The translations under genes and the position numbers were made by a program. Positions 2,380-56,059 of a DNA stretch of 64,000 nt are shown piece by piece (position 1 is the first letter of the stretch; each line of letters opens with the position of its first letter). The DNA is taken from the NCBI GenBank assembly GCA_040386515.1, contig JAZKFG010000005.1, forward strand, positions 9,313 to 73,312. Reading direction: 5' to 3'. The DNA is from Patescibacteria group bacterium (GTDB lineage: Bacteria > Patescibacteriota > Minisyncoccia > Phycocordibacterales > CAIZLB01). The notes beneath the pieces were generated by a model that was not told the DNA's origin, did not search any database, and saw only the letters and a program-made list of their open reading frames with translations.

Positions 2380-3894
2380 TTAAACGAATGTAAACGCCTT
2401 CCCTGTCCGCCCTGCTCGTCCTGCTCGGCCGATTCGGTGAACGTAGTCATCATGAGTCTGAGGAACAGTATAGTTGATCACGTGTGATACATCTTTTACG
2501 TCAATTCCTCGAGCAGCAACGTCTGTTGCAACAAGAACATCTGATATACCAGTTTTAAACTGATCAAGTGTTCGAGCTCGCTCTCGCTGTCGCTTATCAC
2601 CATGCAAGAATCCTGTTTTAAATCCTGCTTTTTCAAGACCATGTGCAACTTCTTCTACTTCTCTTTTTGTTTCCACAAAGATAATAGTTCTTGTAGCGCC
2701 TTCAGATTTTAACAAGTCGCATAGAGTTTTAAATTTATCTTCTCTTCGTACTTTGATAATATCTTGTTCTACAGTCTTAGTACTTCCTGGAACTGCAATG
2801 TCTACAACATGAGGTTCTTTTTGGAAAGTTTGTACAAGTGCTCGAATCTTTGGCGGCATAGTTGCTGAAAAGAATAGAGATTGTCGTACAGGATTTAGTC
2901 CTTTAAGGATCTCAGTAATATCATCAACAAATCCCATATCAAGCATATGGTCTACCTCGTCAAGAACAACGTTGTTGAACTGACTGTATACAATACATCG
3001 TCGGTGTGCCAAGTCTTTAATTCGTCCTGGTGTTCCGATAATAAAATGGTTTACCATTCGTAGATTTTGAATCTGTCGGAAAATTGGCATACCACCAACG
3101 CACACTGTAGAGAAAATTTTCATTCCTTTTGAGAACTCTTCAAATTCTTTATTGATCTGCATTGCAAGCTCACGTGTTGGAGCAAGAATAATAACTTTTT
3201 GAGTTGGATCTTTTAAAACCTTATCAATAAGCGGTAGTAAAAAGGCAGCTGTCTTTCCTGACCCTGTGTTTGCAAGTCCAAGAACATCTTGTCCTTTTAA
3301 TGCATACATAATAGTCTGGTCCTGAATAGGAGTAGGATTTTCATATCCTTTTTCCTTTAGGTTAGCCTGAACTTGATCTGCAAACTTAAAGTCAGCAAAT
3401 GTATGTTCTACAGATACTTTTTTAGTTTTAGCTTTTGCTTCTTTTTCAAGAGTAGCAACATCTGGTTTATATATAAATTTTGAGTGATCGATTCTTTCGC
3501 CTCGAGCAGGACCTCGTCCTCGTCCGCCGCCAAATCCTCCTCCACTTCTACCACCACCAAATCCACCTCGAGCTGGACCACCAAAACTTGGTCGTCCTGG
3601 TCGAAATGCCGGTCGGTCAAATCCTCCGCCTCGCTGACCTCCAAAATCATTACCGCCTCGTGGCGCGTAATCTCTTGACGGTCTTGGTGCAGCAGAAAAT
3701 CCTCCTCGTGAAAAGGCTGGTTTTGTAGGTGAGACATATGGTCTCGTTTGACGAACAATTCGTGTAGTGCTTGATGCAGTAGAAGGAGTACTTGAGAATC
3801 CTCTCGTTCGTGGTGATATTGATGGTTTTGATTTAAAAGATCGATCGGACGCATCACCTTGAGGCCGAGAGCTTATTCTATTTTTTGAGTACAT
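2380..3894 (-). CDS. DEAD-box ATP-dependent RNA helicase with an N-terminal Gly/Arg-rich (RGG-like) tail
   Basis: Core motifs are present in canonical order: motif I AxTGSGKT, motif Ia PTRELA, motif II DEVD, motif III SAT, motif V ARGID and motif VI HRIGRAGRAG. The first ~140 aa are RGG/GGF low-complexity sequence. Confidence 0.9.
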   Translation of the reverse strand: MYSKNRISSRPQGDASDRSFKSKPSISPRTRGFSSTPSTASSTTRIVRQTRPYVSPTKPAFSRGGFSAAPRPSRDYAPRGGNDFGGQRGGGFDRPAFRPGRPSFGGPARGGFGGGRSGGGFGGGRGRGPARGERIDHSKFIYKPDVATLEKEAKAKTKKVSVEHTFADFKFADQVQANLKEKGYENPTPIQDQTIMYALKGQDVLGLANTGSGKTAAFLLPLIDKVLKDPTQKVIILAPTRELAMQINKEFEEFSKGMKIFSTVCVGGMPIFRQIQNLRMVNHFIIGTPGRIKDLAHRRCIVYSQFNNVVLDEVDHMLDMGFVDDITEILKGLNPVRQSLFFSATMPPKIRALVQTFQKEPHVVDIAVPGSTKTVEQDIIKVRREDKFKTLCDLLKSEGATRTIIFVETKREVEEVAHGLEKAGFKTGFLHGDKRQRERARTLDQFKTGISDVLVATDVAARGIDVKDVSHVINYTVPQTHDDYVHRIGRAGRAGRTGKAFTFV

Positions 3895-3956: not shown

Positions 3957-6179
3957 TTATTCTGGCGTTGTAGCAGAAGGAGTTTCTACGGTTTGAGTTG
4001 GTGTAGGCTCCTGCACTATTGGTTCTGGGACAATAACAGGTTCTACAGATGTTGAAGTACTCACAATCGGTTCAGACTGACTAGGCTGAACAGGTGAAGG
4101 TGTTTGAATATTTACATTAAACCCTCCCCCATTTTGAGCTGCCATTCGTAGAAGGTTTTTGAATTGATCTTTACTAATACACACTTCATCAGAACATACT
4201 TGTCCTTCTACATTTAGCTTTGAATCTTGTTTAACTGTAAATGTAGTATCGTCCGTAAACCATACAGCAATTTTCTCAACTTTTGCTGCCAATTCCTTCA
4301 CCGCATTCACAAGCGCCGCCAATATCGGACGATCAGCAAGAGTAAGAAACCCTCTCGCATCTTCTCCTACAGCTTCAGGAATATTCTCTTGTATGTTTTG
4401 AGCTGAGAACCCAGCATAGTTATTTACCGTGTCATATCCTGTTTCTGGTTTCCATTTATATACAATAGGGTTAATGCCTAGTATTTTATCTAATCCTGTT
4501 TTAAATTCTCCTTGTATATCTTTTAGTCTTTCATCAGATGATACGGTTACGTTACCAAGTGAGTCTACTACTAAGTTTGCTCCTCCACCTACGAGTGAGG
4601 TGAAGCGTATGGTTCCTGAGGCGGTGAGGTTGGCAGAGGGGGTTGAGGTGCCGATGCCGAGTCTACCATCATGAGTAAGTCTCATTTTTTCTGTTCGAGA
4701 TATTGTTCCTGATGCGATTGTTTCAAAAGACAATTCACCTGGAGCTGAAGTTGATGTCCAAGTTTGAGGAGCATATCCAGTAATTGCAGCTGCATTACGC
4801 ATTGATGTGCCATCATTTCCCCCAAATATTAAACCTGCTAATCTATCACCTGTTGCCATCGCTGCACCATCATTTGCATATAACTGTATAAATGAACCAC
4901 TTGAAGGTCCAGTTGCAGCGCTTGATTCACCAACGAATACTGCTCCAGATGATGTATTCCCTACACCAATTCCATTTGATCCCGCACCAGTAAACACACT
5001 AGTCGATGTTGAAATTTGCCCAATTTGTAATTTATATACAGGAGTTGTTGTTCCAATACCTAGATTACCAAGATGATCAAGCCGCATCCTCTCTGCTGGT
5101 GTTGCATTGTTTGCAGTTGAGAAAACTAAAGCACCTTTGTAAGTATTTATATCAGTAATAATTCCAGACATACGAGCAATATCTGTTCGAGTTGTACCTG
5201 TTCTTCGTGCAGTAAACAATATACCCGAACCTGTATTTACAGCCGCAGTTCCTCTGTTATCGAGTCGGAGAAAATCAGGAGCCGATCCACTAACTGAATC
5301 AGTGATATCGAGCTTGTATTCAGGACCTGTGTTGCCGATACCCACCAGTCCGCCGAACGGCGCCATCTGAATAGATCCCTTATTGGATGACAGATCATTT
5401 CCAGGAGCGATTTCGATAACATTATCATCAGCGCCTGCTGAGCGAATTATTGAGGCATTACCTCCATACATTTGCCCTGCACTTTGTTGACCTATAACCA
5501 ACCCTCTCCCTCCTGAATTTGCCCTTTCCAGAAAAATAAATTTATCTTTCGTACCCGTAATATGAATCCCTTGTGTCTTATTTACACCTAAATCAATAGT
5601 AAGTGCAGTGGTTGAACTCGCGGCAGTTGTTGTTCCAATAGCAACATTTCCAGCAGAATAATATGTAGTTGTTCCATTTGCTTGCCATAGAGATACTGAA
5701 GTCCACGTAGTTCCATTTGATGTATATAGAGTGTTGTCAGTAGTATTAAAATATAGTGATCCAGCAGGACCTACTGTTGGCGCAGAACTGTAAGAAAACG
5801 TTCCAAAAGATTTAAGAGCAGTTGGTGCAGCGTTGAGTGAAGTACGTGGAGATAGATCAGTGCCGTTGATATTTACTTGAACATACAGAGCTTGATCGAA
5901 GTTAACTCCTGTAGTATCTGATTCTGTGAATGAAGTACCAAAGTAACCATTAGCAACAGTTACTGTTTTTACAATTGGAGATCCTGTCGTACTTCCTCCT
6001 GAAAGCGAATCATAAAATGTAAATGTTGCGTTAACACTACTACTTAGTGGAGCACCATTACTAAAAAGTTGCCCCTGAAAACCTAAACTCTTTGAGGGTG
6101 ATGCAGCGAAAATACTTGCACTAGAAATAAGCGCAGTGATGAGAAAAGTGGAGATGAGTAATAAAGTTCTTTTCTGCAT
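3957..6179 (-). CDS. Secreted fibre-like protein, paralog 1 of 3. It has a signal peptide, a conserved N-module, a Gly-rich beta-repeat core, a C-terminal Peptidase S74-like intramolecular-chaperone domain and a Pro/Thr-rich tail.
   Basis: 740 aa. N-terminal signal/TM segment followed by the AASPSKSLGFQGQLFSNGAPLSSSVNATFTFYD module shared with 30384-34598 and 52899-54761. The C-terminus carries SSDERLKDIQGEFKTGLDKILGINPIVYKWKPETGYD...RGFLTLADRPILAALVNAVKELAAKVE, consistent with the SDxRxK autocleavage family. Confidence 0.8.
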   Translation of the reverse strand: MQKRTLLLISTFLITALISSASIFAASPSKSLGFQGQLFSNGAPLSSSVNATFTFYDSLSGGSTTGSPIVKTVTVANGYFGTSFTESDTTGVNFDQALYVQVNINGTDLSPRTSLNAAPTALKSFGTFSYSSAPTVGPAGSLYFNTTDNTLYTSNGTTWTSVSLWQANGTTTYYSAGNVAIGTTTAASSTTALTIDLGVNKTQGIHITGTKDKFIFLERANSGGRGLVIGQQSAGQMYGGNASIIRSAGADDNVIEIAPGNDLSSNKGSIQMAPFGGLVGIGNTGPEYKLDITDSVSGSAPDFLRLDNRGTAAVNTGSGILFTARRTGTTRTDIARMSGIITDINTYKGALVFSTANNATPAERMRLDHLGNLGIGTTTPVYKLQIGQISTSTSVFTGAGSNGIGVGNTSSGAVFVGESSAATGPSSGSFIQLYANDGAAMATGDRLAGLIFGGNDGTSMRNAAAITGYAPQTWTSTSAPGELSFETIASGTISRTEKMRLTHDGRLGIGTSTPSANLTASGTIRFTSLVGGGANLVVDSLGNVTVSSDERLKDIQGEFKTGLDKILGINPIVYKWKPETGYDTVNNYAGFSAQNIQENIPEAVGEDARGFLTLADRPILAALVNAVKELAAKVEKIAVWFTDDTTFTVKQDSKLNVEGQVCSDEVCISKDQFKNLLRMAAQNGGGFNVNIQTPSPVQPSQSEPIVSTSTSVEPVIVPEPIVQEPTPTQTVETPSATTPE

Positions 6180-6239
6180 GATAAATAAACGTAATATGAC
6201 TATTATTATATCTTTTTTGCGCTCAACTCACAAGAATTT

Positions 6240-8097: not shown

Positions 8098-8529
8098 CTA
8101 TTTCATCTTAGTAAACACTCTATCATCCTTACTCTCATCAAGATTCGGCTGCATCTTTTTCCACACCACTTGCATACCTGCATTAGCTGGATAAAAGGTA
8201 AATAACACATCACCCTTCTCATAAGTTGGAAGTGTATTCTTTTCTCCATACGAATCAAAAACCACATCGAATCCACTTCCATTTTGAACTACTGCTGCAT
8301 TAATATCTTTCATTGTCTGAAATCCATCAACTGAAACATGTGCCTTTTCATTCTTTACCGTAACGACATATGACCATGTTTGATTTGGTGGTACGTATTC
8401 TCCAAACTCATATGTTCCATTTGGATTTGAGGTTGCATATCTACTGCACATGTATGCAATAAGTATGGCAATAAGCGCGATAGCTACAGCGACTAGGTTT
8501 ATGATAGTTCGTTTCTTTTTCATTTTCAT
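8098..8529 (-). CDS. Hypothetical membrane-anchored protein
   Basis: N-terminal TM helix (LVAVAIALIAILIAYM) followed by a soluble domain. Confidence 0.45.
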   Translation of the reverse strand: MKMKKKRTIINLVAVAIALIAILIAYMCSRYATSNPNGTYEFGEYVPPNQTWSYVVTVKNEKAHVSVDGFQTMKDINAAVVQNGSGFDVVFDSYGEKNTLPTYEKGDVLFTFYPANAGMQVVWKKMQPNLDESKDDRVFTKMK

Positions 8530-9695: not shown

Positions 9696-10259
9696 CTAAG
9701 CATTATACAATCTCACGCGTATAGTATTTCCTGAGAAATGATTGGTGAATTTCTCAACGTCTATTTCAACAGCTTCCCATTCCCTCTCTCCATATGAAGA
9801 TGTATGATGAACAATTAATGAGATTATTTTTCCATCTTCTTCTACATATCCAATCACAGGAACTAAGTGTCCTGTTTTTTGATTATCAATAAATGCAGGA
9901 CCAATTGAAACTATAAATATATTATCTTGGTCAATGTATCTTTTAAATTCTTGAATATCTTCAATTTTCATTCTCCCTGCATCAATTCCTCTATCATTGA
10001 ATTCTTTTGCTATTTTATGATGTATACAACCTACACCTAATTTGTATACTCCTTTTTCTTCCATTTCCTCTATAAGCGATGCGAATAATTGATCTTTATA
10101 TTTATCATGCAAATTAAAAACCATTTTCATACAGGCAATTCCGCATACTCTGTTTTCCCACTGTAATGCATGTTCTTTGTCTTTAAATCCTCTTTCCTGC
10201 CACTCGTGACTTGAGCGCTGTGAGAAAAATGGAATTATATGTATGACTTTCTTTTTCAT
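9696..10259 (-). CDS. Peptidase C39-like (papain-fold) domain protein
   Basis: RVCGIACMKMVFNLH resembles the C39 catalytic Cys motif (CGxAaLamvl), and a downstream GHLVPVIGY supplies the His. Confidence 0.45.
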   Translation of the reverse strand: MKKKVIHIIPFFSQRSSHEWQERGFKDKEHALQWENRVCGIACMKMVFNLHDKYKDQLFASLIEEMEEKGVYKLGVGCIHHKIAKEFNDRGIDAGRMKIEDIQEFKRYIDQDNIFIVSIGPAFIDNQKTGHLVPVIGYVEEDGKIISLIVHHTSSYGEREWEAVEIDVEKFTNHFSGNTIRVRLYNA

Positions 10260-10265
10260 ATTCGA

Positions 10266-11159
10266 CTACAACTCAATCTTGCCTTGTACAGTATGCAATT
10301 CAACATTTTTAATAGTTGGATATTGTGTAAGCGTATCCTTAAGTACAGCAAACAAATGCTGAGTCTGACAGCTACTTAATGAGCTAAGAGGTTTTCCTGC
10401 TCGAGTCATATTGCTTGTAAGCATTACCTTTGCAACACCTTTTTCAATAGTTACTGATTTATAAACTCCATATTCTGCCAATTCATTACCAAAAAGTATT
10501 TTCAATGACGCATCGGCAACCGATGTTGTTTTAGGCACCTGATATGTAACTGGATATGTTGCTGCACATGTCTCAGTTTCTGCAACTTTTTTATCTTGTA
10601 GATATACAGTCAATGACATTTCATTTGCAGGAGGAAGAGTAACAGTGAAATCTACTTTATTACTTTCCTTTCCCCAAGGTGATGTATATATTTTATATTT
10701 TCCAGGAGTGATACTCACATAGTTTTTGCATGGCTGGCCAGAATATGAATTATTCTCCTTACAAATATTTGCATCAATTTTTACACGTATAGTATTATCT
10801 TTTCTTGGCACATATCCAATACCTGCAAGAAATGCAACTTCCCCTTTACTGTTTTCAATGAGTGCATCCATATCACCTTCTAGGCCCGCGAAATTAACAC
10901 CCTTCAATTCAATAATTGTTCCAACTGGACCTGATGATTGCGAAATAGATGAAATAAATGGCGCATTATGATCAGTTGGAGTTTTTACTGTATTTTGTGT
11001 AGGAATAACAGGAGTTGGATTATTTGTATTCGTATCTGTTGTTGCAACAGCCGGCGCATCTTCCTTTTTATCAGTATATAAATATATACAGCCAGCAATT
11101 GCCAGTGCAGCTACAATAGCAAGAAGAGGGATAATATAGCCTTTTTGTGTATTTCTCAT
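10266..11159 (-). CDS. Membrane-anchored protein with an IPT/TIG-like Ig domain
   Basis: N-terminal TM helix, a Thr/Pro/Asn linker, and an ISSISQSSGPVGTIIELKGVNF IPT/TIG-like motif. Confidence 0.4.
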   Translation of the reverse strand: MRNTQKGYIIPLLAIVAALAIAGCIYLYTDKKEDAPAVATTDTNTNNPTPVIPTQNTVKTPTDHNAPFISSISQSSGPVGTIIELKGVNFAGLEGDMDALIENSKGEVAFLAGIGYVPRKDNTIRVKIDANICKENNSYSGQPCKNYVSITPGKYKIYTSPWGKESNKVDFTVTLPPANEMSLTVYLQDKKVAETETCAATYPVTYQVPKTTSVADASLKILFGNELAEYGVYKSVTIEKGVAKVMLTSNMTRAGKPLSSLSSCQTQHLFAVLKDTLTQYPTIKNVELHTVQGKIEL

Positions 11160-30383: not shown

Positions 30384-33300
30384 TTACTCCCCATCAACAA
30401 CAGGAGCTGGAGTTTCAACCGGTGCAACAGGTTCAGGTGCAGGAGGAGTTACTTCTTCAGTGACTTCAGGTTCAGGAGTTGCACTTGATGAATCTGAAGG
30501 TGGAGGTACAACAGGTACTGTTGGTGCTGATGATGAATGTCCTCCTCCACCATTATTACCCTTTGCATTTAACATCATTTGCTTAAACTCTTGCTTTGTC
30601 ATACACACTTCCTCAACACAGAATTGTCCGTCGAGCTTGATTGAACTATTTTCAGGCACTGCCAGAGTTTTACCATCATCTTTAAACCATGCTGCAATCT
30701 GTTCAACTTTTGTCGCTAATTCTTTTACTGCATTTACAAGTGAAGCAAGAATAGGTCTGTCTGCAAGAGTTAAGAATCCTCGTGAATCAGTCGATACCGC
30801 TTCAGGAATTGCAGACTGAACATTCTGAGCACTAAATCCGGCATAACTATGTTCAGTGTCATATCCAGTTTCTATTTTCCATTTATACAAAATCGGATTA
30901 ATTTGCTTAATCTTATCAAGTCCAGAAATAAACATTCCTTGAATATCTTTTAGTCGTTCGTCAGATGATACGGTTACATTTCCAAGAGAATCAGTGATTA
31001 AGTTGGCACCCCCTGAACCAAGATTAATAAATCGAATTGTTCCAGATGCGGTCAATGTTGCTGATGGAGTACTTGTTCCAATACCCACATTTCCATTTGA
31101 AGTTATTCGCATTCGCTCAACATTATTCGAACCAAAGATAACATCAGTTGCATCAAGTGTTGCCATCATAATATTTCGTGAAGTTCCTGCCGTGTTAAAT
31201 ATTGCATCAACAGTATTTCTTGGAATTGATCCAAGGAAGTTTCCGGTGTAATTCACTCCTGCCTGGCTAAATGCAAAATAGTGATCAGATGTATCTTTGA
31301 TGAGGAATCTAAAGTCAGCTCCATTTCCTGTGCTTGTATTACCCATCTGAACCCCTGATGCACCGTTAAAGTTATCTGAAATATTTGCTGCAAACGTACT
31401 ATTACCTCCTATTGAAAGCGGAACAAAGGCAGCACTATTTGCGTTTACAGATAATTTGGCAAGCGGTGTTGTAGTTCCAATTCCAACATTTCCATTTGCC
31501 TGAACATTAAACAATGACGCATTAGATGCGCTCCAAATATCTATAATTGGGGCAGTTTGTGAAGTTGTTGCTTGTGCTGCAAATGTAGTACTGCCGATAT
31601 TAGTAGAAAATACATGCAACTTTGCTAAAGGTGATGTTGTTCCTATTCCGAAGTTTCCATTTGCATCCAGTGTCATTTTTGGAACAGTTCCTCCACCAGT
31701 TGTATCATTACTATAAAAAGTCAGAGCGTACGCAGATGACATTCTTAAGCCACGTGTGTTTCTCAAATCATAATCCATGTTAATACTTCCGTATTTTGTT
31801 CCTGTGTTTGTATTGCTAAATATCCAATCAAGACCGTAGCCCTGACCGGTCCCTCCTCCTCCAAGTGTAATACGTGTACTTCCTGTTTGATTACCTCCAA
31901 GATGTAATGCACTCATTGCAGAAGTGGTTCCAGTACTTATCCAACCATTTGAGGAATTAACAAACAATGCCGGCGCTGACGATGTTCCAACATTGAAACT
32001 ACCAGCAACATCAAGCTTTGCAGACGGTGACGAAGTTCCTATCCCAACATTTCCAGATGTTCCATCAATAACAAGCAACGGTGCTACTGTGTTTGTTATA
32101 AGAAACTTTCCAGCCCCTCCACTATTTGCAGAGCCGGTTGAAAGTATGTCAAAAGTTTTACCTCCAGTGTCTGTATTGACAAATTTCCAAACTGTACCAC
32201 CTGCTGCAGCAGAAGCCATTGTAAATAATGATCCAGGTGTTGTAGTTCCTATTCCGACATTTCCAGCAGATGTAATTCGAAGCCGTTCAGTTATGTTACC
32301 TGCATTTGGTCGAGTACTAAGAGCGATATATCCTCCATAATTTCCAGAAATTGAATCATCTCGTCCAGATCGAATCGCTGCATTAATTGCAACTGCCCCA
32401 GAGGTATTGTATTTTGCCCCGAATGAAAGCGTACCTCCATAATCTACAGTCGGTGACCCATCATTTGCAATAATGGCAACTTGACCCGAGCTAGTTCCAT
32501 TAACTAAAGTTTTATTCGGCGAAGCAAATACCGCTGTAAATGCTCGGTCAGAAGCACTACTTCCATCAAGTGTACCTGATTGAACACTCAATAAGCTGTT
32601 TGGAGAAGTTGTTCCAATTCCGACATTTCCAGCGTTAGTTATTTGAAATACAGACGTTCCATTTTTTGCAATTGAAACAAAATCAGCATTACCAGTGTTA
32701 TCAATTTTCAATGTTGGTGCAGCTGAGAAACCACTTTGTAGATGCATCAATGCAATACCAGGTTCATTTAATCGAACAAAAGATGTACCTGAAACATATA
32801 CATCTAATGCTGCTGCAGGCGTTGTTGTTCCAATTCCAACACTTCCAGCTAAGTAACCAACATTAGAACCATTAGTAATCCACTGACTACTCACCTTACT
32901 TGCCCACTCAGTTGTTGACGCACTAAGAGGAATTACATATCCTGAAGTGAGTGATAATATTCCAGTAGTAGATGAGTATGATAGTCCTGTTGCATCTGTT
33001 GAAAATGAATTCCGCACACTTGATGTACTAAATATTCCAGTGAGCTGCGAACCATCTCCAATAAATGCTGTGGCGTTCACATTTCCACTAAAGTAACCAT
33101 TACCAATTACTGAAAGTTTTTGCACTGGAGTTGTTGTGCCCATACCAACATTTCCATTATCCAAAATACTAAACAACGCAGTATTTGCAGAGTTGGTTGT
33201 CTGGAAGTTTATTCCCGTTGTTGTTCCAATCCCCTTTATTGCAAGACGTGAACTAGGAGTTGTCGTGCCTCCGATTCCGACATTGCCATTTAACAAAATA

Positions 33301-34598
33301 ATCATTTTTGCACTATCAGACGGACCGATAACGGTCGAGTTTGCAATTGCATTAGTTAATGATGTTCCAAAGGCAGAAGCATTGTTAGCAGTGACTGAAT
33401 TGGAAAATCCAAATGCCATACTATTTGATGAAGATGCGGCTATTACGTTATTGTATCCAAATGCATTACTCAAAGAACCTAAAGCGCTGTTATTATTTCC
33501 AAACGCCGACGTACGAAATCCATTTGCCGTATTGAGTGCACCCACTGCAGATGCATAATCCCCACCTGTTGCGAGGTTATTATTTCCGAAAGCACTTGCA
33601 TATTGTCCGACAAGACCAGCTGAGGTAGAACTACCTGCGACGTTTCCGGCACCGAATGCAGATGTCAAATGGCCGGCTGCCTTATTCTGCAATCCCATAG
33701 CACTATTTCCATACATCCAAGACAGAGAACCTGTTGCCACATTTGCCATACCTACTGAGATAGAATAATTACCTGCAATATTCCCATTTCCAATAGCGCC
33801 ACCTCCACCAGGAAATAGAGGGTCTACCATGTTATCAAGTCCGAATGTATATGAGTTTGAGGCTGCGGCAACCTGAGTTGGCAATGAGTGCGAAGACTGG
33901 ACATCTATTGACCCTGCACCTCGAGCATTACCACTTATGTCTCCCATTACGACAGCATTGTTTGAATTTATAACCTTAATATCACCCTGAACAGTTAGCG
34001 CTGAACCTGGCGTCGTTGTTCCAATTCCAACATTCCCTGTATTAAAATACGTATCACTGTCATTCATCAACCATGGTGATGTAGAAGCTGAACTAGCCGT
34101 AACATTCCAAGATGTTCCATCAGATACAAACAATGTATTTGAGACATTGTTAAAATACAAAGATCCAGCTGGACCTACTGTTGGCGCTGATGCATATGAA
34201 AATGCTCCAAAAGATTTTAATGCGGTTGGCGCAGCATTAAGTGCAGTTCGTGGAGATAAGTCAGTACCATTAATATTTACCTGAACATATAATGCTTGAT
34301 CAAAGTTAACACCAGTTGTGTCCGCTTCAGTAAAAGATGTTCCAAAATATCCGTTAGCAACAGTTATTGTTTTTGCAATTGGAGAACCTGTTACTACTCC
34401 TCCTGAGAGTGAATCGTAAAATGTAAATGTTGCGTTTACTGATGATGATACTGGCGCATTGTTACTGAAAAGTTGCCCTTGGAAACCGAGTGCTTTTGAT
34501 GGACTTGCAGCATATATATTTACAGCGAAAAAAAGCGTAGAAATTGCAGAAATGAGAATGGTAAATAAAGTTCTTCTCTTCATGATGCATACACGCAA
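30384..34598 (-). CDS. Giant secreted fibre-like protein (1404 aa), paralog 2 of 3. It has the same N- and C-terminal modules as paralogs 1 and 3, around an expanded Gly-rich repeat core.
   Basis: Signal peptide; the shared N-module AASPSKALGFQGQLFSNNAPVSSSVNATFTFYD...; at least 9 copies of the (N/A/S)GNVGIGTTTPxxxLxV repeat; and the C-terminal SSDERLKDIQGMFISGLDKIKQINPILYKWKIETGYD...RGFLTLADRPILASLVNAVKELATKVE with a Pro-rich tail. Confidence 0.85.
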   Translation of the reverse strand: MRVCIMKRRTLFTILISAISTLFFAVNIYAASPSKALGFQGQLFSNNAPVSSSVNATFTFYDSLSGGVVTGSPIAKTITVANGYFGTSFTEADTTGVNFDQALYVQVNINGTDLSPRTALNAAPTALKSFGAFSYASAPTVGPAGSLYFNNVSNTLFVSDGTSWNVTASSASTSPWLMNDSDTYFNTGNVGIGTTTPGSALTVQGDIKVINSNNAVVMGDISGNARGAGSIDVQSSHSLPTQVAAASNSYTFGLDNMVDPLFPGGGGAIGNGNIAGNYSISVGMANVATGSLSWMYGNSAMGLQNKAAGHLTSAFGAGNVAGSSTSAGLVGQYASAFGNNNLATGGDYASAVGALNTANGFRTSAFGNNNSALGSLSNAFGYNNVIAASSSNSMAFGFSNSVTANNASAFGTSLTNAIANSTVIGPSDSAKMIILLNGNVGIGGTTTPSSRLAIKGIGTTTGINFQTTNSANTALFSILDNGNVGMGTTTPVQKLSVIGNGYFSGNVNATAFIGDGSQLTGIFSTSSVRNSFSTDATGLSYSSTTGILSLTSGYVIPLSASTTEWASKVSSQWITNGSNVGYLAGSVGIGTTTPAAALDVYVSGTSFVRLNEPGIALMHLQSGFSAAPTLKIDNTGNADFVSIAKNGTSVFQITNAGNVGIGTTSPNSLLSVQSGTLDGSSASDRAFTAVFASPNKTLVNGTSSGQVAIIANDGSPTVDYGGTLSFGAKYNTSGAVAINAAIRSGRDDSISGNYGGYIALSTRPNAGNITERLRITSAGNVGIGTTTPGSLFTMASAAAGGTVWKFVNTDTGGKTFDILSTGSANSGGAGKFLITNTVAPLLVIDGTSGNVGIGTSSPSAKLDVAGSFNVGTSSAPALFVNSSNGWISTGTTSAMSALHLGGNQTGSTRITLGGGGTGQGYGLDWIFSNTNTGTKYGSINMDYDLRNTRGLRMSSAYALTFYSNDTTGGGTVPKMTLDANGNFGIGTTSPLAKLHVFSTNIGSTTFAAQATTSQTAPIIDIWSASNASLFNVQANGNVGIGTTTPLAKLSVNANSAAFVPLSIGGNSTFAANISDNFNGASGVQMGNTSTGNGADFRFLIKDTSDHYFAFSQAGVNYTGNFLGSIPRNTVDAIFNTAGTSRNIMMATLDATDVIFGSNNVERMRITSNGNVGIGTSTPSATLTASGTIRFINLGSGGANLITDSLGNVTVSSDERLKDIQGMFISGLDKIKQINPILYKWKIETGYDTEHSYAGFSAQNVQSAIPEAVSTDSRGFLTLADRPILASLVNAVKELATKVEQIAAWFKDDGKTLAVPENSSIKLDGQFCVEEVCMTKQEFKQMMLNAKGNNGGGGHSSSAPTVPVVPPPSDSSSATPEPEVTEEVTPPAPEPVAPVETPAPVVDGE

Positions 34599-34695
34599 GT
34601 GATGCTTATATTATATGCGTTTTTCGTAACTTTAACAAGAAAAAACTCCACAGAATTGTGAAGTTTTTTCGAGCAAATTTTTTACAATTTTTTAA

Positions 34696-35322
34696 CTAAT
34701 AATTTGACTGAAAAGTGGCCGGATATGTCACACTAACTTCCCCATTTGCAGATGTTGCAACTGCTCTAAAATAATATGTTCGATTTGACTCAAGCGGAAG
34801 CGAAACAACATTGTTTGCTGTAAGCAAACTTGTGCCCGTCATCACCCCTGTACCGCTCAAAGTAACGGTCATTGGAGTCACAAATACATTTTCTGTTCCC
34901 GTGATTGGAGAAGTACTGTAGAATACGCTTACTCGACTAGGAATATTTGTATTTACATTAAATGTAGCTGTATTTCCATTCAATGTTACTCCAACAGGAG
35001 TTGTAAACATTGGCGCTGAACCTAATGTAGTCCCGCCCATTTGTGAATTTATAACCGACATGGTCTGAGGACCAACTCTTCCTACTTGGCTAATGCCATT
35101 TTTAGCCTGAAATCTAGTTACCGCCGCTTTTGTAAGTGATCCAAAGTACCCTGTTACAAGTCCTGATGGATACACGCTGCTATCCGTTGCGAGAAATCTC
35201 TGCAAATCAGAGACATCTGTTCCTTGCGAACCTAACTCTAATTGTCTTGTCAGAGCTGCAAAAGTTAATGCAGGTGCCAAGGCAAACGCTAAACAAATTA
35301 ATACTATGTTGAATTTTTTCAT
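34696..35322 (-). CDS. Secreted protein with a peptidoglycan-binding (PG_binding_1-like) domain
   Basis: Signal peptide plus the GTDVSDLQRFLATDSSVYPSGLVTGYFGSLTKAAVTRFQAKNGI motif typical of PGRP-type PG-binding repeats. The C-terminal half is Thr/Val-rich and beta-rich. Confidence 0.5.
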   Translation of the reverse strand: MKKFNIVLICLAFALAPALTFAALTRQLELGSQGTDVSDLQRFLATDSSVYPSGLVTGYFGSLTKAAVTRFQAKNGISQVGRVGPQTMSVINSQMGGTTLGSAPMFTTPVGVTLNGNTATFNVNTNIPSRVSVFYSTSPITGTENVFVTPMTVTLSGTGVMTGTSLLTANNVVSLPLESNRTYYFRAVATSANGEVSVTYPATFQSNY

Positions 35323-36578: not shown

Positions 36579-39449
36579 TTACTTAATCATGCTTAATGGA
36601 GACTTCACTTCTTCTTTTTTCTCTTCCTTTTTATATTTTTCCATAATACCTTCTTCAACCATATCTCGATCTTGACCGTATGTTAGATATGAAAGCTCTT
36701 TAAGATTTTCTACAATATTTGGATTGCCTTTTTCTTGCGGCATCATTTGTATGTTAAATGGCTTTGTCGGCTTTCCATATGAGAGCATTTTCACATAGGC
36801 ATTAAAGTTATCAATATTCATAATATCGTTCGCCATAAAAGTGGGCTCAAATTGCTTTTCAAGATATTCTGCATCCTCAGCACCAACTCGATAGACCACC
36901 ATATTTCCAACGTTACCAAACACAGATGCCTTGATTTTATCATCAAGCTGAGCAATGAACTGATGAGCCATTGTAAGCGACAATTTATACTTTCGTGCCT
37001 CTGACAAAATAGTTGAAATAGACGGTGTGGTTACGTTTTGGAACTCGTCGATATACAAATAAAACGGCGGCATATCTTTTCCGAATGAATCCACACGCGA
37101 AAGTGCGGCCATCAAAATCTTTCCTACAATAATCAAACCGATAAGGTTAGAGTTAATTTCACCCAACTTTCCTTTTGCCAAGTTCACCAGCAAAATCTTT
37201 TTCTTATCCATGATTTCTCGAAAATTAAAACTAGAATGTTCCTGAGCGATAATCGGTCGCATAATATCATTGGCCAAAAATACATCAAACTTTGATGTGA
37301 TATATGGCACCATGTTTGCAAGGCCAGATTCCCCGCTTGTCTTTTCTGCAATTTCAACCCAAAATTGCCGCACGATCGGATTTTTACATCGTGAGATTTT
37401 CATGTCTCGGAAGCTTTTAACGGCCATTACTCGAGAAACATCAAGGAGTGTACACCCGCTCGATGGATCTTCGATTACAAGCATTGTGGCATTTCTAAAA
37501 TACTGCTCAAACATCGGCCCCATACTTTCAGGCACGCCACCGTATAACTTTTGGAAAATACTAAAAAGCTCGTTTACCACGAATGTTTTTTGCTCAGGAT
37601 GCGATGGATCATATTCGAGCATGTTCAATGCCATTGGACGTTCTGTATAACTTGGATCAAAATAAATAACATCATCAAATCTATCCTTTGGGATTTTTGA
37701 AAGAATATCCTGAATGTCAGATCCGTGCGGGTCGATAAAACACACTCCTTCTCCATTTTTAATATCTTGAAGAATGAGATTTTTAAGAATACTTGATTTA
37801 CCCACACCAGTTTGTCCGATCACATACATGTGTCGAAGTCTGTCTTCTGGCGCCATGTAAACTGGCTGTTCAACATTTCTATGAAGATTCTTACCGAGAA
37901 GCACACCTGTGCGAGGAAGGTCGAGTGGGGCCGGAGCAGTTCCAGCTTTTGACTGCTTGAGCTGCGGCGCATTTGTAGCTCCAGAAAGCATTGGAAAATG
38001 CATCACACTCGAAAGCTCTTTTATAGAAAGCGGAATAATTTCTTTTTGATTAAAAATACGAAATGAAAAATCATGCAAAAAACTTTGTAGTCTAGCTTTC
38101 TCTGGTCGCTCCCACGAAAATCCATTTCCAAGCGCATTATTAAACTGATTAAAACTTGATTCAAGATCAGAAAGTATTTGCTCGGCACGAATCGTATTCG
38201 CAGCTGATGCAACAAGACGAATATTTGTTTCAACAATTGGCGTAGTTATTTTCTTGGTGATTTGCTCAAGGGCTATCTGGTCAACAACTTTTTCTTTATC
38301 TTTTTTATTTTTATCATCTCCATTGACTGCGTGCTCAACCAATTCTTTCCCAAGCTCTCCTGCAGCTTTAGTAAAATGTCCCCACATGGTGTGGCGAATA
38401 TCGATAGACTTTTTCAACGAATCACCCTTACGCACTTTATCAAGAGACTCTTTAAAAAGCTTTGTATAATAATCTCCGACCTGACTAAATACAACCTGCA
38501 CAGATGCCCCTTCTCCCTCTCTTTGAATCTTAGAGAGCGTATTGAGTGTTACCTGCAAAGGATCATGATCAAATTCATCATACATTTTTATAGGAAAAAT
38601 TTCATTCTTAGTTGAAGTTGCATATGAGCCAACGCTTGATCCATCAGAGTTAAAGATATTATAATCGTCATGTTTTATTTCTATTTTTGCACCTGGAAAT
38701 ACAGACAAAATATGCTTTTCAAAAAGATCCGCTTTTGCATCTGGAATAGAAACATAGAAAATAAATTCTTCACTTGCATCAGCCACTGCAAGCTCAATAG
38801 TCATATGATTTTTACTATCTCCCTGCTTTTTACCAGCATCAGAAATAGACATCATACCTGCATAAAATTGTTCCATTGCAGAAAGAAGTTCTTTCAATGG
38901 CCGTTGTCCTGCATCTTTTTTATCAGCTTTAAAATCAGGCAAAGACACTTCATACAATGTATGCGTGATTGATTTTTGTATTGGCTCGCCTTCTTTTAAA
39001 TCCTTAATTGTTAAACCCGCTTTCAAATATTCAACAAGAAATCTATGGAAATCATCTTCGAGATGAGGGTTTTTGGTTTGATGAATGGCAGACAAAGCAT
39101 TATGAATACCGTATTTTTCCATTAAGGTAAAATACTCTTCCATGTTTTTATCATGTGCTTCAGGCGAAAGCTTAAGAACTATTTCTGTACCTCGAGTCTC
39201 ATGCTCTTGAGGTGTAGCCTTATACGATTCATGCAAAAGATCACGGCCAGTATTGGCATGATATTCTTTTATTTCCTCGCGGATAATCTGATCCTGTTCT
39301 TTTTGTCCGCCAATAGTTGCTTCATGTGCTTTTACTTGCGCACGTAAATAATCCAACTCTTCTTCTAAGGTTGTAAAAGGTTTTTTTTCAGGCTCTGCAG
39401 AGAGATTAGGTTGGCCTGCAATATTTTCTATGTGTTCTCTATCGATCAT
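36579..39449 (-). CDS. P-loop ATPase of the FtsK/HerA/VirB4/TraG superfamily (AAA_10/DUF87-like) with a ~500-aa uncharacterised N-terminal domain
   Basis: Walker A GQTGVGKSS is followed by CFIDPHGSDI, which matches the DPxGE motif of DUF87/VirB4/VirD4 ATPases. Walker B is YLYIDEFQ, and a downstream RKYKLSLTMAHQ matches the RK...Q motif of conjugative ATPases. No TM helices. Confidence 0.55.
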   Translation of the reverse strand: MIDREHIENIAGQPNLSAEPEKKPFTTLEEELDYLRAQVKAHEATIGGQKEQDQIIREEIKEYHANTGRDLLHESYKATPQEHETRGTEIVLKLSPEAHDKNMEEYFTLMEKYGIHNALSAIHQTKNPHLEDDFHRFLVEYLKAGLTIKDLKEGEPIQKSITHTLYEVSLPDFKADKKDAGQRPLKELLSAMEQFYAGMMSISDAGKKQGDSKNHMTIELAVADASEEFIFYVSIPDAKADLFEKHILSVFPGAKIEIKHDDYNIFNSDGSSVGSYATSTKNEIFPIKMYDEFDHDPLQVTLNTLSKIQREGEGASVQVVFSQVGDYYTKLFKESLDKVRKGDSLKKSIDIRHTMWGHFTKAAGELGKELVEHAVNGDDKNKKDKEKVVDQIALEQITKKITTPIVETNIRLVASAANTIRAEQILSDLESSFNQFNNALGNGFSWERPEKARLQSFLHDFSFRIFNQKEIIPLSIKELSSVMHFPMLSGATNAPQLKQSKAGTAPAPLDLPRTGVLLGKNLHRNVEQPVYMAPEDRLRHMYVIGQTGVGKSSILKNLILQDIKNGEGVCFIDPHGSDIQDILSKIPKDRFDDVIYFDPSYTERPMALNMLEYDPSHPEQKTFVVNELFSIFQKLYGGVPESMGPMFEQYFRNATMLVIEDPSSGCTLLDVSRVMAVKSFRDMKISRCKNPIVRQFWVEIAEKTSGESGLANMVPYITSKFDVFLANDIMRPIIAQEHSSFNFREIMDKKKILLVNLAKGKLGEINSNLIGLIIVGKILMAALSRVDSFGKDMPPFYLYIDEFQNVTTPSISTILSEARKYKLSLTMAHQFIAQLDDKIKASVFGNVGNMVVYRVGAEDAEYLEKQFEPTFMANDIMNIDNFNAYVKMLSYGKPTKPFNIQMMPQEKGNPNIVENLKELSYLTYGQDRDMVEEGIMEKYKKEEKKEEVKSPLSMIK

Positions 39450-51536: not shown

Positions 51537-52742
51537 TTACGCAACGATTTTTGTTACAACTCCGGCTCCTACAGTCTTACCTCCTTCTCGGATAGCAAAT
51601 CGTGTATTGTCCTCTAGAGCGATTGGAGCTACAAGCTTTACTTTAAAAGTAACTGTATCTCCAGGCATAACCATTTTTCCTTCTTCAGCTAGTGTTACTT
51701 CACCTGTTACGTCAGTTGTTCGAACGTAGAACTGTGGCTTATAACCTGAGAAGAATGGTGTATGTCGTCCTCCTTCTTCTTTCTTCAAGATGTATACTTC
51801 TGCTTCAAAGTCTGTATGAGGCTTAACTGAACCTGGTTTAGCAAGTACCTGTCCTCGTGAAATATCTTCTTTCTTTACAGATCGTAGTAGTAGTCCAGCG
51901 TTATCTCCAGCCATACCTTCTGATAGAGATTTGTTGAACATTTCAACCCCTGTAACGATAGTCTTAACAGTGTCTTTTAGACCTACGATTTCGATTTCTT
52001 CACCAATTTTGATGATTCCTTTCTCGATTCGTCCTGTAACTACAGTTCCTCGTCCTTCAATAGAGAATACGTCTTCTACTGGCATTAGGAAAGGTTTGTC
52101 AGTCTCACGTACTGGTGTTGGGATAAATGAGTCGATAGCGTCAGCTAGATCAACGATTTTCTGTGCCCACTCATCACTAACATCTGCTGCGTTCAAAGCT
52201 TTTAGAGCTGAACCTCGGATAACTGGTGCGTTAGCTCCATCAAATCCGTTCTTTGTTAGAAGTTCACGTATTTCCTCTTCTACAAGGTCAAGCATGTCTT
52301 TATCATCAACCATGTCACACTTGTTCATAAATACAAGAATCTGAGGTACTCCAATCTGCTTTGCAAGAAGAACGTGCTCACGTGTTTGTGGCATAGGTCC
52401 GTCTGTTGCTGCAACCACAAGGATAGCACCGTCCATCTGAGCTGCTCCTGTAATCATGTTTTTGATGTAGTCGGCGTGACCTGGAGCATCAACGTGTGCG
52501 TAGTGACGTGTTGGTGTCTCGTATTCACAGTGAGCAAGAGAAATAGTAATTCCTCGAGCTTTTTCCTCTGGAGCTTTGTCAATTTCGTTCATTCCTAGAA
52601 GTTTGGCTCCATAACCATTTCCCTTCTTTGAAAGAACACTAAGAATAGCCGCTGTAAGAGTTGTCTTACCGTGGTCAACGTGGCCGATTGTACCAACGTT
52701 TACGTGTGTTTTTGATCGATCGAATGCTTCTGCTACTGCCAT
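51537..52742 (-). CDS. tuf: Elongation factor Tu
   Basis: 401 aa with [18 protein letters not shown] and NKCD motifs. Confidence 0.97.
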
Positions 52743-52898
52743 ATATTTTTATATTCAATTAATTAATATTTTATGTAATTTTGCGAATTTTTGGTTTGGG
52801 GTAAATGTACGTGAATAACTTACCTCAAAGCAAAAAGAAAATCGCAATGGATACAAGTGTAGCAACTGCGATTCTTATTGTCAATCAATATTATAATC

Positions 52899-54761
52899 TT
52901 ATTCTGTTGTTGTGTCTGTTACTGGTGCCGGAATTGGATCTGGCACAGGTTGTACAGCTGGTTCAACCTCAGGTGCTGGCGCTGGTGTAACTGGTACTTC
53001 AACTATTTGTTCAGGAGTACTGCTTGAAGTCGGTGCTGGTGGAGGTACAGAAGGAAGCGGCTGCTGAATAATATTAATGTTTTGACTTGTCATCAGTGTT
53101 TCAATTTGATCCCCTGTTATACAAACTTCTTGACCATTAGTTTTTTGAACACATAGATTTTTAGTTTTAACAATATCGGTCTCTACAAGTTTTGTTTTAA
53201 CCGCTTCAGCAAATCCCTCCACCTTAGCAGCAAGCTCCTTCACCGCATTCACAAGCGCCGCAAGGATAGGACGGTCAGCTAATGTAAGAAAACCTCGTCC
53301 ATCTGTTCCTACAGCTTCTGGAATATTTTCTTGAACATTTTGTGCACTAAATCCTGCATATGCATTTGTTGTATCGTACCCAGTCTCTGGTTTCCATTTA
53401 TACATGATTGGGTTAAGACCTAGGATTTTCTCTAATCCTGTTTTAAATTCTCCTTGTATATCCTTTAGTCTTTCGTCAGATGATACGGTTACGTTACCAA
53501 GTGCATCAGTTGAGAGTGATCCTGCACCAAGTGATGCAAAACGTACTGTTCCTGTTGTTGTAAATTGAGCTGTTGGGGTTGAGGTTCCGATGCCGACAAA
53601 TCCGTTTGCCATAATTCTCATTCTTTCAGAAGTGGTTGTTCCGACAGTCGTACCAAATATTAAATCGGTATCAAGCACAGTCGGAGTGTGGACCTGTGCG
53701 GACATAGCACGAATGAATGCAGTTGTTGTTCCTGGATCTGTGAGCTGCGAGTCGTTACTTGAAAAATTAATCATTCCAATTGGTTCATTTGCAGATATAG
53801 CGTAACGAAATGATCTAAGGTTGAGACTTCCACTAGATGAGGCGGCACCAGTTAGGACATATGTGCCCGATCCAGCTACAACCAAACGAGCATCCACAAC
53901 TGAAGAACCTATGCCAACATCTCCAGGAGTAGTAATAATCATTTTATCACTACTTGCAGTTGTGTTTGTTGCAGCACGGTTTGCATTTCCAAAACGCAAC
54001 ACACCAGCTGACATACGCATATAGCCAAATGGACGACCTACTGGATCGGCAGAATCAGCAACATTAGTATCCTCTATTCGAAGGAATCCACCATTAGCAC
54101 CAGAAATTCTAAGTGATGCGGTTCCAGCAGGATTCACCACATGAAAAAGTTCACTTGGAGTACTCGTTCCAACCCCAACCTTTCCAGCAATATAAGTAAT
54201 ATCAGTACCACTTGTTACCCATGGAGTTGATACAGTCCACGTTGTTCCGTTTGATATATACAGAGTGTTATCAGTTGTATTGAAATACAGAGATCCAGCT
54301 GGACCAACTGTTGGTGCACTTGCATATGAGAATGCTCCAAAAGACTTAAGAGCAGTAGGGACTGCATTCAAAGCAGTTCGAGGACTTAGATCTGTACCGT
54401 TGATATTTACCTGAACATACAATGCTTGATTGAAGTTTACTCCTGTTGTATCTGCTTCTGTAAATGATGTTCCAAAGTAACCATTTGCAACAGTTACTGT
54501 TTTTACAATCGGAGAACCTGTTACAGCTCCACCTGAGAGTGCATCATAAAATGTAAATGTTGCATTTACTGATGATGAAAGTGGAGCTCCACTACTATAT
54601 AGCTGTCCTTGAAAGCCAAGAGACTTTGAAGGAGAGGCAGCGAAGATAGTTGTTGCTGAAAATATACCAACAACAAGCATGGCAGACAAAAGATATTTTT
54701 TTGTAGTTAAAGTTCGTTTCATGTATATAGTTATTGTATATGTTTTTTCACTAATTAACAA
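52899..54761 (-). CDS. Secreted fibre-like protein, paralog 3 of 3 (conserved N-module, Gly-rich core, S74-like C-terminal domain, Pro-rich tail)
   Basis: 620 aa. Signal peptide; N-module AASPSKSLGFQGQLYSSGAPLSSSVNATFTFYD...; C-terminus SSDERLKDIQGEFKTGLEKILGLNPIMYKWKPETGYD...RGFLTLADRPILAALVNAVKELAAKVE; Pro/Ala/Val-rich tail. Confidence 0.8.
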   Translation of the reverse strand: MLISEKTYTITIYMKRTLTTKKYLLSAMLVVGIFSATTIFAASPSKSLGFQGQLYSSGAPLSSSVNATFTFYDALSGGAVTGSPIVKTVTVANGYFGTSFTEADTTGVNFNQALYVQVNINGTDLSPRTALNAVPTALKSFGAFSYASAPTVGPAGSLYFNTTDNTLYISNGTTWTVSTPWVTSGTDITYIAGKVGVGTSTPSELFHVVNPAGTASLRISGANGGFLRIEDTNVADSADPVGRPFGYMRMSAGVLRFGNANRAATNTTASSDKMIITTPGDVGIGSSVVDARLVVAGSGTYVLTGAASSSGSLNLRSFRYAISANEPIGMINFSSNDSQLTDPGTTTAFIRAMSAQVHTPTVLDTDLIFGTTVGTTTSERMRIMANGFVGIGTSTPTAQFTTTGTVRFASLGAGSLSTDALGNVTVSSDERLKDIQGEFKTGLEKILGLNPIMYKWKPETGYDTTNAYAGFSAQNVQENIPEAVGTDGRGFLTLADRPILAALVNAVKELAAKVEGFAEAVKTKLVETDIVKTKNLCVQKTNGQEVCITGDQIETLMTSQNINIIQQPLPSVPPPAPTSSSTPEQIVEVPVTPAPAPEVEPAVQPVPDPIPAPVTDTTTE

Positions 54762-55681: not shown

Positions 55682-56041
55682 TTAAACAAGCTCTAGGAGT
55701 CGAATGTTAATTCCCTTGCGAAACCAATGCTTGGTGCAGCGAATTTTAGCCCTACAATCATTCGTAAGCGAGGAAACGAGTTTTGAAGTCAAAGGAATAC
55801 GAACTTCTTTATCACATATTCCATTTGGCAATACGATGGAAACATATCCCTTCTTTATATCAGAAATTTCAACGACTAGGTCGCAGGTAAAGTATTCAAT
55901 TCGCTCACAGAGCATTATCAAAGAAATACCAACCAGCGCCACAAAAGGGGCATATATCGGATTTAAAAAAATCATACATAGGATGGGTAAAGGTGCAATT
56001 TGCACTATATACTCATATTTTCCAAAAAACAATGTTCCCAC
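55682..56041 (-). CDS. Hypothetical small membrane protein (uncertain; competes with an unlikely N-terminal extension of ruvA)
   Basis: 119-aa ORF with hydrophobic segments, lying opposite the ruvA upstream region. Confidence 0.25.
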   Translation of the reverse strand: MGTLFFGKYEYIVQIAPLPILCMIFLNPIYAPFVALVGISLIMLCERIEYFTCDLVVEISDIKKGYVSIVLPNGICDKEVRIPLTSKLVSSLTNDCRAKIRCTKHWFRKGINIRLLELV

Positions 56042-56059
56042 TCTATGCTATGATAGAGC

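Follow-up and report, generated by a model that had tools for sequence, protein, structure and literature searches.

S74 chaperone domains on three putative surface-fibre proteins of a Patescibacteria bacterium, and a conserved module behind the chaperone

Bacterial surface fibres that end in a chaperone domain of the S74 type have been described in Bdellovibrio bacteriovorus, which has 21 "mosaic adhesive trimer" (MAT) proteins (Caulton et al. 2024; PMC10769870). Thirteen of these proteins end in an S74 domain with the motif SDxxxK, and in Bd3182 the protein cleaves itself at S782, a reaction that is blocked by the S782A substitution (PMC10769870). The MAT fibres are located on the surface of the predator, are trimeric along their length, and are related to the fibres of K1F and T5, while all of the MATs have a conserved, beta-rich N-terminal domain of approximately 130 amino acids (aa) behind a signal peptide (PMC10769870). 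A capping-loop motif, V-G-[G/N/I]-x-x-x-P-x-x-x-L, is listed for the MATs, and also for MyRF, in the supplement of the same paper. Three paralogous genes of similar layout, referred to here as A, B, and C, are found in a stretch of 64,000 nucleotides (nt) from a Patescibacteria group bacterium (contig JAZKFG010000005.1 of the assembly GCA_040386515.1, positions 9,313 to 73,312 of the forward strand), which is referred to below as the window.

The proteins encoded by these genes are interpreted here as Sec-exported homotrimeric surface fibres of a bacterium of the Patescibacteria (Candidate Phyla Radiation, CPR), which would be built like the S74-class MATs and the distal tail fibres of phages, with a chaperone that would cleave at its Ser, retention on the cell through the N-terminal part, and a probable role in the binding of a host cell. 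The probability of this interpretation is estimated at roughly two in three. The presence of S74 domains on non-phage bacterial proteins is documented and very common, and the core observation is not new. A profile of the S74 domain with its tail, for example, recovered 126,299 clusters (representatives at 50% identity) at E<=1e-3, and 23,136 at E<=1e-10. What is new is the placing of such fibres in the Patescibacteria, together with a conserved module behind the chaperone, which sets the exported cellular S74 proteins apart from the viral ones. The literature searches recovered no paper that connects the Patescibacteria with S74 or tail-fibre domains.

All three genes lie on the minus strand. 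Gene A (3957..6179) encodes 740 aa and was delimited by its open reading frame (ORF) and its Pfam match to S74; its product matches, with 100% identity, an entry on a contig of 236 kb that NCBI names [quoted passage not shown] (P0001), where MAG denotes a metagenome-assembled genome. Gene B (30384..34583) encodes 1399 aa from an ATG at 34583 and equals the database protein P0225, while gene C (52899..54722) encodes 607 aa from an ATG at 54722 and equals P0007. The ORFs of B and C were first listed as 30384-34598 and 52899-54761, although these two ATGs, which agree with the database proteins of 1399 and 607 aa, are the likely starts. An earlier note on this DNA had quoted a C-terminal peptide shared by three paralogs, and this peptide is found in three minus-strand ORFs. 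The GC content of the fibre genes is 0.405-0.411, compared with 0.375 for the window.

The three genes resemble those of the S74 class of MATs, such as Bd3182, in being chromosomal, non-phage, and present as several paralogs in one genome, with conserved ends and variable middles. The layout of the proteins is also the same, with a signal peptide (putative in the window proteins), a beta-rich N-terminal domain of about 130-140 aa that is only possibly homologous between the two groups, a stalk with capping loops, and an S74 domain with SDxxxK. Given that the window proteins have the layout of the MATs, the use of a phage-fibre architecture as a bacterial surface fibre already has a characterized example. 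The novelty implied by the earlier note was thus overstated, considering that NCBI already annotates the product of the gene as a tail fiber domain protein and that bacterial surface fibres terminated by S74 have been described experimentally (PMC10769870). The two systems differ in their hosts, however, given that B. bacteriovorus is a Gram-negative predator, whereas the bacterium of the window is a monoderm-type member of the Patescibacteria. They also differ behind the catalytic Ser, where Bd3182 (922 aa) has 140 aa following S782, whereas the window proteins have 192 aa, including a Cys-hairpin and helix and a low-complexity tail. A surface location has been demonstrated for the MATs, and cleavage for Bd3182, while both are predicted for the window proteins.

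A second relative is the eukaryotic MyRF protein, a membrane-bound transcription factor, the ICA domain of which (7DC3) is the best structural match to the chaperone of the window. The two are also alike in having a capping-loop motif upstream of the S74 domain, and in the location of this domain, which is not at the C-terminus. In MyRF, however, the ICA domain is followed by a transmembrane helix and a luminal region, rather than by a Cys-hairpin and a low-complexity tail, and cleavage frees the N-terminal part of the protein into the cytoplasm and nucleus.

The third group of relatives consists of the phage chaperones, such as those of K1F (3GW6), T5 pb1 (4UW8), and GA-1 (3GUD), which belong to the same Pfam family as the window domains and have the S-D-x-x-x-K motif and the fold in common with them. 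The viral comparison was based on a profile scan of IMG/VR; a viral scan with a single protein as the query found nothing. The profile scan recovered related S74 domains at 80 viral loci, with identities over the chaperone of 57-66% for the best of them. One of these loci is a genuine siphophage tail module, in which a major tail protein and a tape measure protein of 1316 aa are followed immediately by an S74 protein, and genuine phage tail modules hold S74 domains that are up to 62-66% identical to those of the window. The phage S74 proteins also share the conserved strand that immediately precedes the Ser. The label "phage-type", which the earlier note had applied to the domain, is apt, because the related S74 domain is found in a genuine tail module and shares this strand. 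The phage fibre proteins nevertheless differ from those of the window in that they lack an export signal, attach to the virion through other N-terminal domains, and fold in the cytoplasm.

The chaperone domain and the module that follows it

In protein A, the catalytic motif S548-D-E-R-L-K553 (4521..4538, minus strand) marks the beginning of the S74 intramolecular chaperone domain, which extends from residue 548 to approximately residue 645 (4245..4538, minus strand) according to Pfam, AlphaFold2, and Foldseek, with Ser548 as the predicted site of autocleavage. The corresponding residues are Ser1207 in B (30965-30963, minus strand), which is preceded by a stalk with seven capping loops and followed by the S74 domain and a Cys-hairpin tail that run to the stop codon, and Ser415 in C (53480-53478, minus strand), which is followed by the same domain and tail. 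The codons of the SDERLK motif occupy positions 4538-4521 in A, 30965-30948 in B, and 53480-53463 in C. The interval of 3957-4400, in which the earlier note had placed the domain of A, contains only the second half of the chaperone and the region behind it, while SDERLK lies some 120-140 nt upstream of the end of that interval.

The Pfam model PF13884 (Peptidase_S74, "chaperone of endosialidase") matches the three proteins with 41.2, 44.4, and 46.1 bits (E values of 2e-10, 2e-11, and 6e-12) over positions 1-57 of its 58. As the gathering cut-off of this model is 22 bits, these matches are far beyond chance. No NCBIfam model matches the fibre proteins. The Ser, Asp, Arg, and Lys of the S-D-x-R-x-K motif are invariant in 32 diverse relatives, and in an alignment of 18 sequences, while one Gly, an Ala-Gln pair, and one Pro further on are also invariant in the 32-sequence alignment. 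An AlphaFold2 model of residues 470-740 of protein A has a predicted local distance difference test score (pLDDT) of 90-97 across the chaperone, and the best match to this model in the Protein Data Bank (PDB), as searched by Foldseek, is the MyRF ICA domain 7dc3 (E of 2e-5, probability of 1.0, and a template modelling score of 0.6 on the target). The next matches are the L-shaped fibre protein pb1 of T5 (4uw8), the endosialidase chaperone of K1F (3gw6), the Bdellovibrio fibre Bd2133 (8ond), and the GA-1 chaperone (3gud). The earlier note had proposed a profile search and a prediction of the C-terminal structure as checks on its assignment of an S74-like domain with SDERLK to three paralogs and, as both Pfam and Foldseek return matches, this assignment stands.

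The proteins do not, however, end with this domain, contrary to what the same note had held. Approximately 95 residues lie beyond the last helix of the chaperone, comprising a conserved Cys-hairpin and helix, and then a low-complexity tail. In A, the hairpin module (residues ~646-685; 4125..4244, minus strand) begins with WFTDD, and continues through the C662-x4-C667 beta-hairpin to the helix ISKDQFKNLLRMA, with both the hairpin and the helix modelled by AlphaFold2 at a pLDDT of 75-80. The tail (residues 686-740; 3960..4124, minus strand) is rich in Pro, Thr, Ser, and Glu, is modelled as disordered, and has Glu as its last residue; over the three paralogs, the tail is rich in Thr, Ser, Pro, Ala, and Glu. 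The consensus of 18 aligned relatives for the region behind the chaperone is W[FL]xD..., followed by C-x(2-14)-C-[VIL]-[TS]-x-x-[QE]-[LF]-x-x-[LM][LI], in which both Cys residues are invariant, and no Pfam or NCBIfam model covers the region. Exactly 192 aa follow the catalytic Ser in all three paralogs (3960-4538, 30387-30965, and 52902-53480), despite the presence of indels between their tails. The S74 domain is thus not at the extreme C-terminus of A, B, or C, a position that is usual in the phage members, although it does not strictly define the family. Most of their relatives end 82-140 aa after the Ser.

The module is not restricted to the window. It was recognized in 111 of 138 new top-scoring cluster representatives, at about 100-140 aa after the Ser, and in 135 of the cellular proteins collected overall. 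The 111 representatives are 200 to 4372 aa long, and the N-terminal domain of the window type is present in only eight of the 102 that are full-length. None of the 63 complete viral S74 ORFs has the Cys-hairpin module, and the viral proteins end at a median distance of 95 aa behind the Ser, in contrast with the 192 aa of the window proteins. A hydrophobic segment is found at the N-terminus of 70% of the full-length, tail-bearing cellular proteins, but of only 10% of the viral S74 ORFs, even though the latter were scored with the most favourable start codon. Given this difference, the tail goes with export and, in the sets compared, it is restricted to the cellular proteins, as a class that bears export signals.

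Two further observations refer to the end of the protein. A terminal Glu, which is found in 11 of the 12 close relatives, was considered as a possible universal C-terminal signal, but was rejected because it ends only 32 of the 135 tail-bearing proteins. Some tail-bearing relatives, including P0010, P0014, and P0018, have an extra immunoglobulin-like (Ig-like) domain (PF16403) or a repeated "ANDNPFN...NDNAS" behind the Cys-hairpin, and the fragment that would be released with the chaperone can therefore be multidomain.

Export signal, N-terminal domain, and stalk

The N-terminus of all three proteins is signal-peptide-like, as assessed by a heuristic, with a basic start, a hydrophobic run of approximately 17 aa, and a site of the form F-A-A|S-P, with hydropathy of 2.3-2.6. 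In A, this segment, read directly from the translation, covers residues 1 to ~25 (6105..6179, minus strand), where MQKRTLLLISTFLITALISSASIFA is followed by ASP, and reaches a maximum 12-residue hydropathy of 2.59. These N-termini agree with the description of the proteins as secreted in the earlier note.

The segment is followed, in A, by a conserved beta-sandwich (residues 26-163; 5691..6104, minus strand) with the pattern "GFQGQL...LSPR...P.AL", which is presumed to be the cell-proximal anchor. The same domain is found in B (34092-34508) and C (54225-54638), in both cases on the minus strand. Between the paralogs, this domain is 89-91% identical at the amino-acid level, but only 75-78% at the nucleotide level, which indicates that it is under purifying selection. 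Recent gene conversion was considered as a cause of this conservation, and was rejected on the basis of the same low nucleotide identity. The domain lies right behind the signal peptide in all of the 121 proteins collected. A search for homologues with a profile of the domain recovered only short fragments (all <=277 aa), none of which bears the name of Bdellovibrio.

Between the conserved ends, the paralogs have variable middles, which gives them a mosaic layout. In A, the middle is a stalk rich in Thr, Gly, Ser, and Ala (residues 164-547; 4539..5690, minus strand), which contains three capping-loop motifs, VGIGNTGPEYKL, LGIGTTTPVYKL, and LGIGTSTPSANL. The motif [VL]G[IV]G..xP...L occurs three times in A and seven times in B, in comparison with a shuffle expectation of 0.002 for A, and 0.002-0.01 overall. 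The motifs of A and B agree with the list for Bdellovibrio and MyRF in the supplement of PMC10769870. A phmmer search of the PDB sequences aligned the stalk repeat "EKMRLT..G.LGIGT..P" with Bd2133 and Bd1334 of Bdellovibrio (E of 0.05-0.06). The length of the mature proteins varies about threefold, from approximately 390 to 1182 residues, through the stalk.

Genomic setting and alternative explanations

Gene A is located between the genes of a prepilin peptidase (pilD) and a DEAD-box helicase, with pilM nearby, while B is flanked by a NUDIX gene on one side and, on the other, by a group of genes for a PG_binding_1 protein, a glycosyltransferase, and a VirD4-like ATPase. Immediately downstream of C are tuf and the L3/L4 cluster. 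The placement of A and C is that given in the earlier note, although B is some 5 kb from map, with the group just named in between, rather than next to it. The housekeeping neighbours in the window include pilM, the DEAD-box helicase, the prepilin peptidase, EngB, ClpB, ThrRS, and IF-2, together with map, adk, secY, L3/L4, tuf, ruvA, and folD. A Pfam scan of the 40 larger ORFs of the window found cellular functions only, with no match to a capsid, terminase, integrase, sheath, tube, or baseplate. Five tRNAs are present in the window, none of which adjoins any of the three fibre genes. The same series of genes, EngB, DUF5991, prepilin peptidase, and S74 fibre, is also found in L003, an independent contig from a metagenome, in which the fibre is a relative of 703 aa. 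The absence of a prophage context, as claimed in the earlier note, is thus borne out by both the scan and the synteny.

The N-terminal domain of the three proteins recurs in one MAG of the Patescibacteria (L001) and one of the Saccharibacteria (L002). In L001 (2803-8468), a confirmed rpoC and two small ORFs lie just upstream of the relative, while the corresponding position of L002 (614-5463) holds an ORF of equal length (1229 aa). Fibre genes with this N-terminal domain are thus located in a conserved transcription and translation neighbourhood both in the window, in the case of C (51537-54722), and in these two MAGs. The relative in L001 is a giant protein of >1100 aa, and possibly of >2800 aa, with repeats of roughly 50 aa that contain "TASTTEWA".

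A number of other features of the neighbourhood were recorded. A promoter-like site, TTGTGA-17-TATAAT (6205..6233, minus strand), is found 26 nt upstream of the start codon of A, and a similar site (34610-34638) upstream of B, both as matches to the consensus only; the promoter and terminator scans of the window gave no more sites than expected from shuffles. Next to the prepilin peptidase and fibre genes, both the window (8098-8529) and L003 (1667-2107) encode a small DUF5991 protein, with a hydrophobic segment at its N-terminus. The DEAD-box helicase beside A (2380-3894) has a low-complexity, RGG-like N-terminal extension of approximately 150 aa, rich in Gly, Arg, Ser, and Pro, with the helicase core beginning at about residue 188. 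A Peptidase_C39_2-like protein (9696-10259) adjoins a protein of 297 aa (10266-11159), which begins with a hydrophobic segment and matches no Pfam model, and the two may form a secreted or processing pair. Just upstream of B, a VirD4/TraG-like coupling-protein ATPase of 956 aa (T4SS-DNA_transf, TraG-D_C) is accompanied by the PG_binding_1 protein and the glycosyltransferase (36579-39449 and 34696-35322); a type IV secretion system of the conjugation type was reportedly described in the Patescibacteria in 2025 (PMC12102498). The RuvA protein (55704-56657) has an N-terminal extension of approximately 119 aa, with RuvA_N starting at residue 120 of its 317.

This setting bears directly on the possibility that the three genes are prophage remnants, or that they encode the fibres of a phage-derived particle, such as a tailocin or an extracellular contractile injection system. 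Tail fiber families of PHROGs match all three proteins, related S74 domains with up to 66% identity are present in genuine phage tail modules, and S74 has been reported in the literature on the fibres of injection systems. The genes nevertheless occupy three separate loci, each flanked by core genes and with no match to a particle gene among the 40 ORFs scanned, and all three proteins begin with a signal-peptide-like segment that 90% of the viral S74 ORFs lack. As the synteny of pilD and the fibre gene is conserved in L003, this context and the signal peptides make a prophage or particle origin very improbable, and the tail of the window type, found at none of the 63 viral termini, points in the same direction. 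A link of A to the type IV pilus, as an accessory protein or tip adhesin tied to the neighbouring pilD and pilM, deserves equally little credence, given that B, C, and the relatives in L001 and L002 lie in unrelated contexts, and that A has an ordinary signal peptide in place of a prepilin leader with a G|F-type motif. The neighbourhood of A is the only ground for this link, in that A adjoins the prepilin peptidase, with pilM near, and keeps its adjacency to pilD in L003. Possible interplay with pili has been raised by the authors of the MAT study (PMC10769870), and type IV pili are reported to drive episymbiosis in the Saccharibacteria (10.1101/2024.11.25.624915).

The S74 domain was defined on the endosialidase of K1F and occurs on depolymerase tailspikes, while the Bd3182 monomer resembles the P22 tailspike (PMC10769870), which would be compatible with secreted, tailspike-like enzymes that degrade glycans and use the domain as the endosialidases do. 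Domain searches with Pfam (E<=0.01), with the central region unmodelled, found no glycosidase, lyase, pectate-lyase, or lectin domain in any of the paralogs, however, and the PHROGs families matched are those of fibres, rather than depolymerases, so that an enzymatic function of this type seems improbable. The lack of both lectin and enzyme domains is itself in keeping with structural envelope proteins, that is, an S-layer-like or cell-wall coat, or spacer fibres, in which the S74 domain would merely be a folding device. Such a coat would also account for three paralogs with nearly identical N-terminal domains, for their Thr/Ser/Gly/Ala-rich composition, and for the location of C beside the tuf and ribosomal cluster and of relatives after rpoC, which would suit a high, constitutive expression. 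The combination of a variable middle and conserved ends is, on the other hand, the pattern of the recognition proteins of phages and the MATs, and the roughly threefold range in length (390 to 1182 mature residues) would be odd in a regular lattice. Neither of these two points is decisive, although the structural function is considered unlikely here.

Assembly and possible role of the fibres

If the proteins are exported surface fibres, as favoured here, the signal peptide would carry the unfolded chain across the membrane, where the C-terminal S74 domains of three chains would associate and template an interdigitated, beta-helical stalk, beginning from its C-terminal end. The Ser-Lys dyad of SDERLK would then cut at the Ser, which is S548 in A, S1207 in B, and S415 in C, in an autoproteolytic step that is suggested by the conserved residues and by the analogy with Bd3182, K1F, and T5. 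This cleavage would free a fragment of 192 residues, formed by the chaperone, the Cys-hairpin and helix, and the Thr/Ser/Pro-rich tail. The mature fibre would be held on the cell by the conserved N-terminal beta-sandwich, with the variable stalk pointing outward. The extra module behind the chaperone may adapt this phage-type folding device to an assembly that takes place outside the cytoplasm. In relation to the earlier suggestion of a domesticated phage-fibre architecture used as surface fibres, the architecture is supported by the profile, the fold, the export-type N-termini, and the context, although the direction of transfer implied by the term "domesticated" is not established.

A number of points weigh against this interpretation. 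Beyond MyRF, the PDB matches are weak (E of 0.02-0.9, with high root-mean-square deviations), although such scores are to be expected when the model of a monomer is compared with intertwined trimers. The structure models are all of monomers, and both trimerization and cleavage are inferred. Paralog C has no capping-loop motif at the strict setting. The cellular set was ranked by a profile that includes the tail, so that the proportion of 111 in 138 overstates the frequency of the tail among cellular S74 proteins as a whole, and very few of the proteins that bear the tail or the N-terminal domain have an organism name, one of these being Candidatus Paceibacterota. An S-layer-like or structural role would also fit the data equally well.

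Within the favoured interpretation, the most probable role of the fibres would be to bind structures on the surface of a second cell, for example the host of an episymbiont. All of the cultivated Patescibacteria are reported to be obligate epibionts (10.1101/2024.11.25.624915), and it is for this reason, together with the analogy with the MATs, that the binding of a host-cell surface is the most attractive role. A location on the cell surface and adhesion to another bacterium would both follow from this analogy.

A more specific proposal, which is put forward only tentatively and is rather doubtful as a whole, is that the fibres are the host-recognition adhesins of episymbiotic Patescibacteria, forming a phage-like repertoire of receptor-binding proteins with swappable middles, which would set the choice of host. 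In this proposal, the Cys-hairpin and the Thr/Ser/Pro-rich tail would constitute a previously undescribed device that lets a trimer nucleated at its C-terminus fold outside the cytoplasm after Sec export, and the Cys-hairpin tail might hold the three C-termini together at the envelope until cleavage.

It is mainly type IV pili that have been implicated so far in the recognition of hosts by the epibionts of the Patescibacteria (CPR). A family of exported phage-fibre-like proteins with swappable middles would be an obvious candidate for the determination of host range, and a sequence search could identify its members in thousands of uncultured genomes. The combination of the Cys-hairpin tail and an export signal would also provide a simple sequence rule for the separation of cellular S74 fibres from those of prophages, which annotation pipelines now lump together as "tail fiber domain-containing protein".

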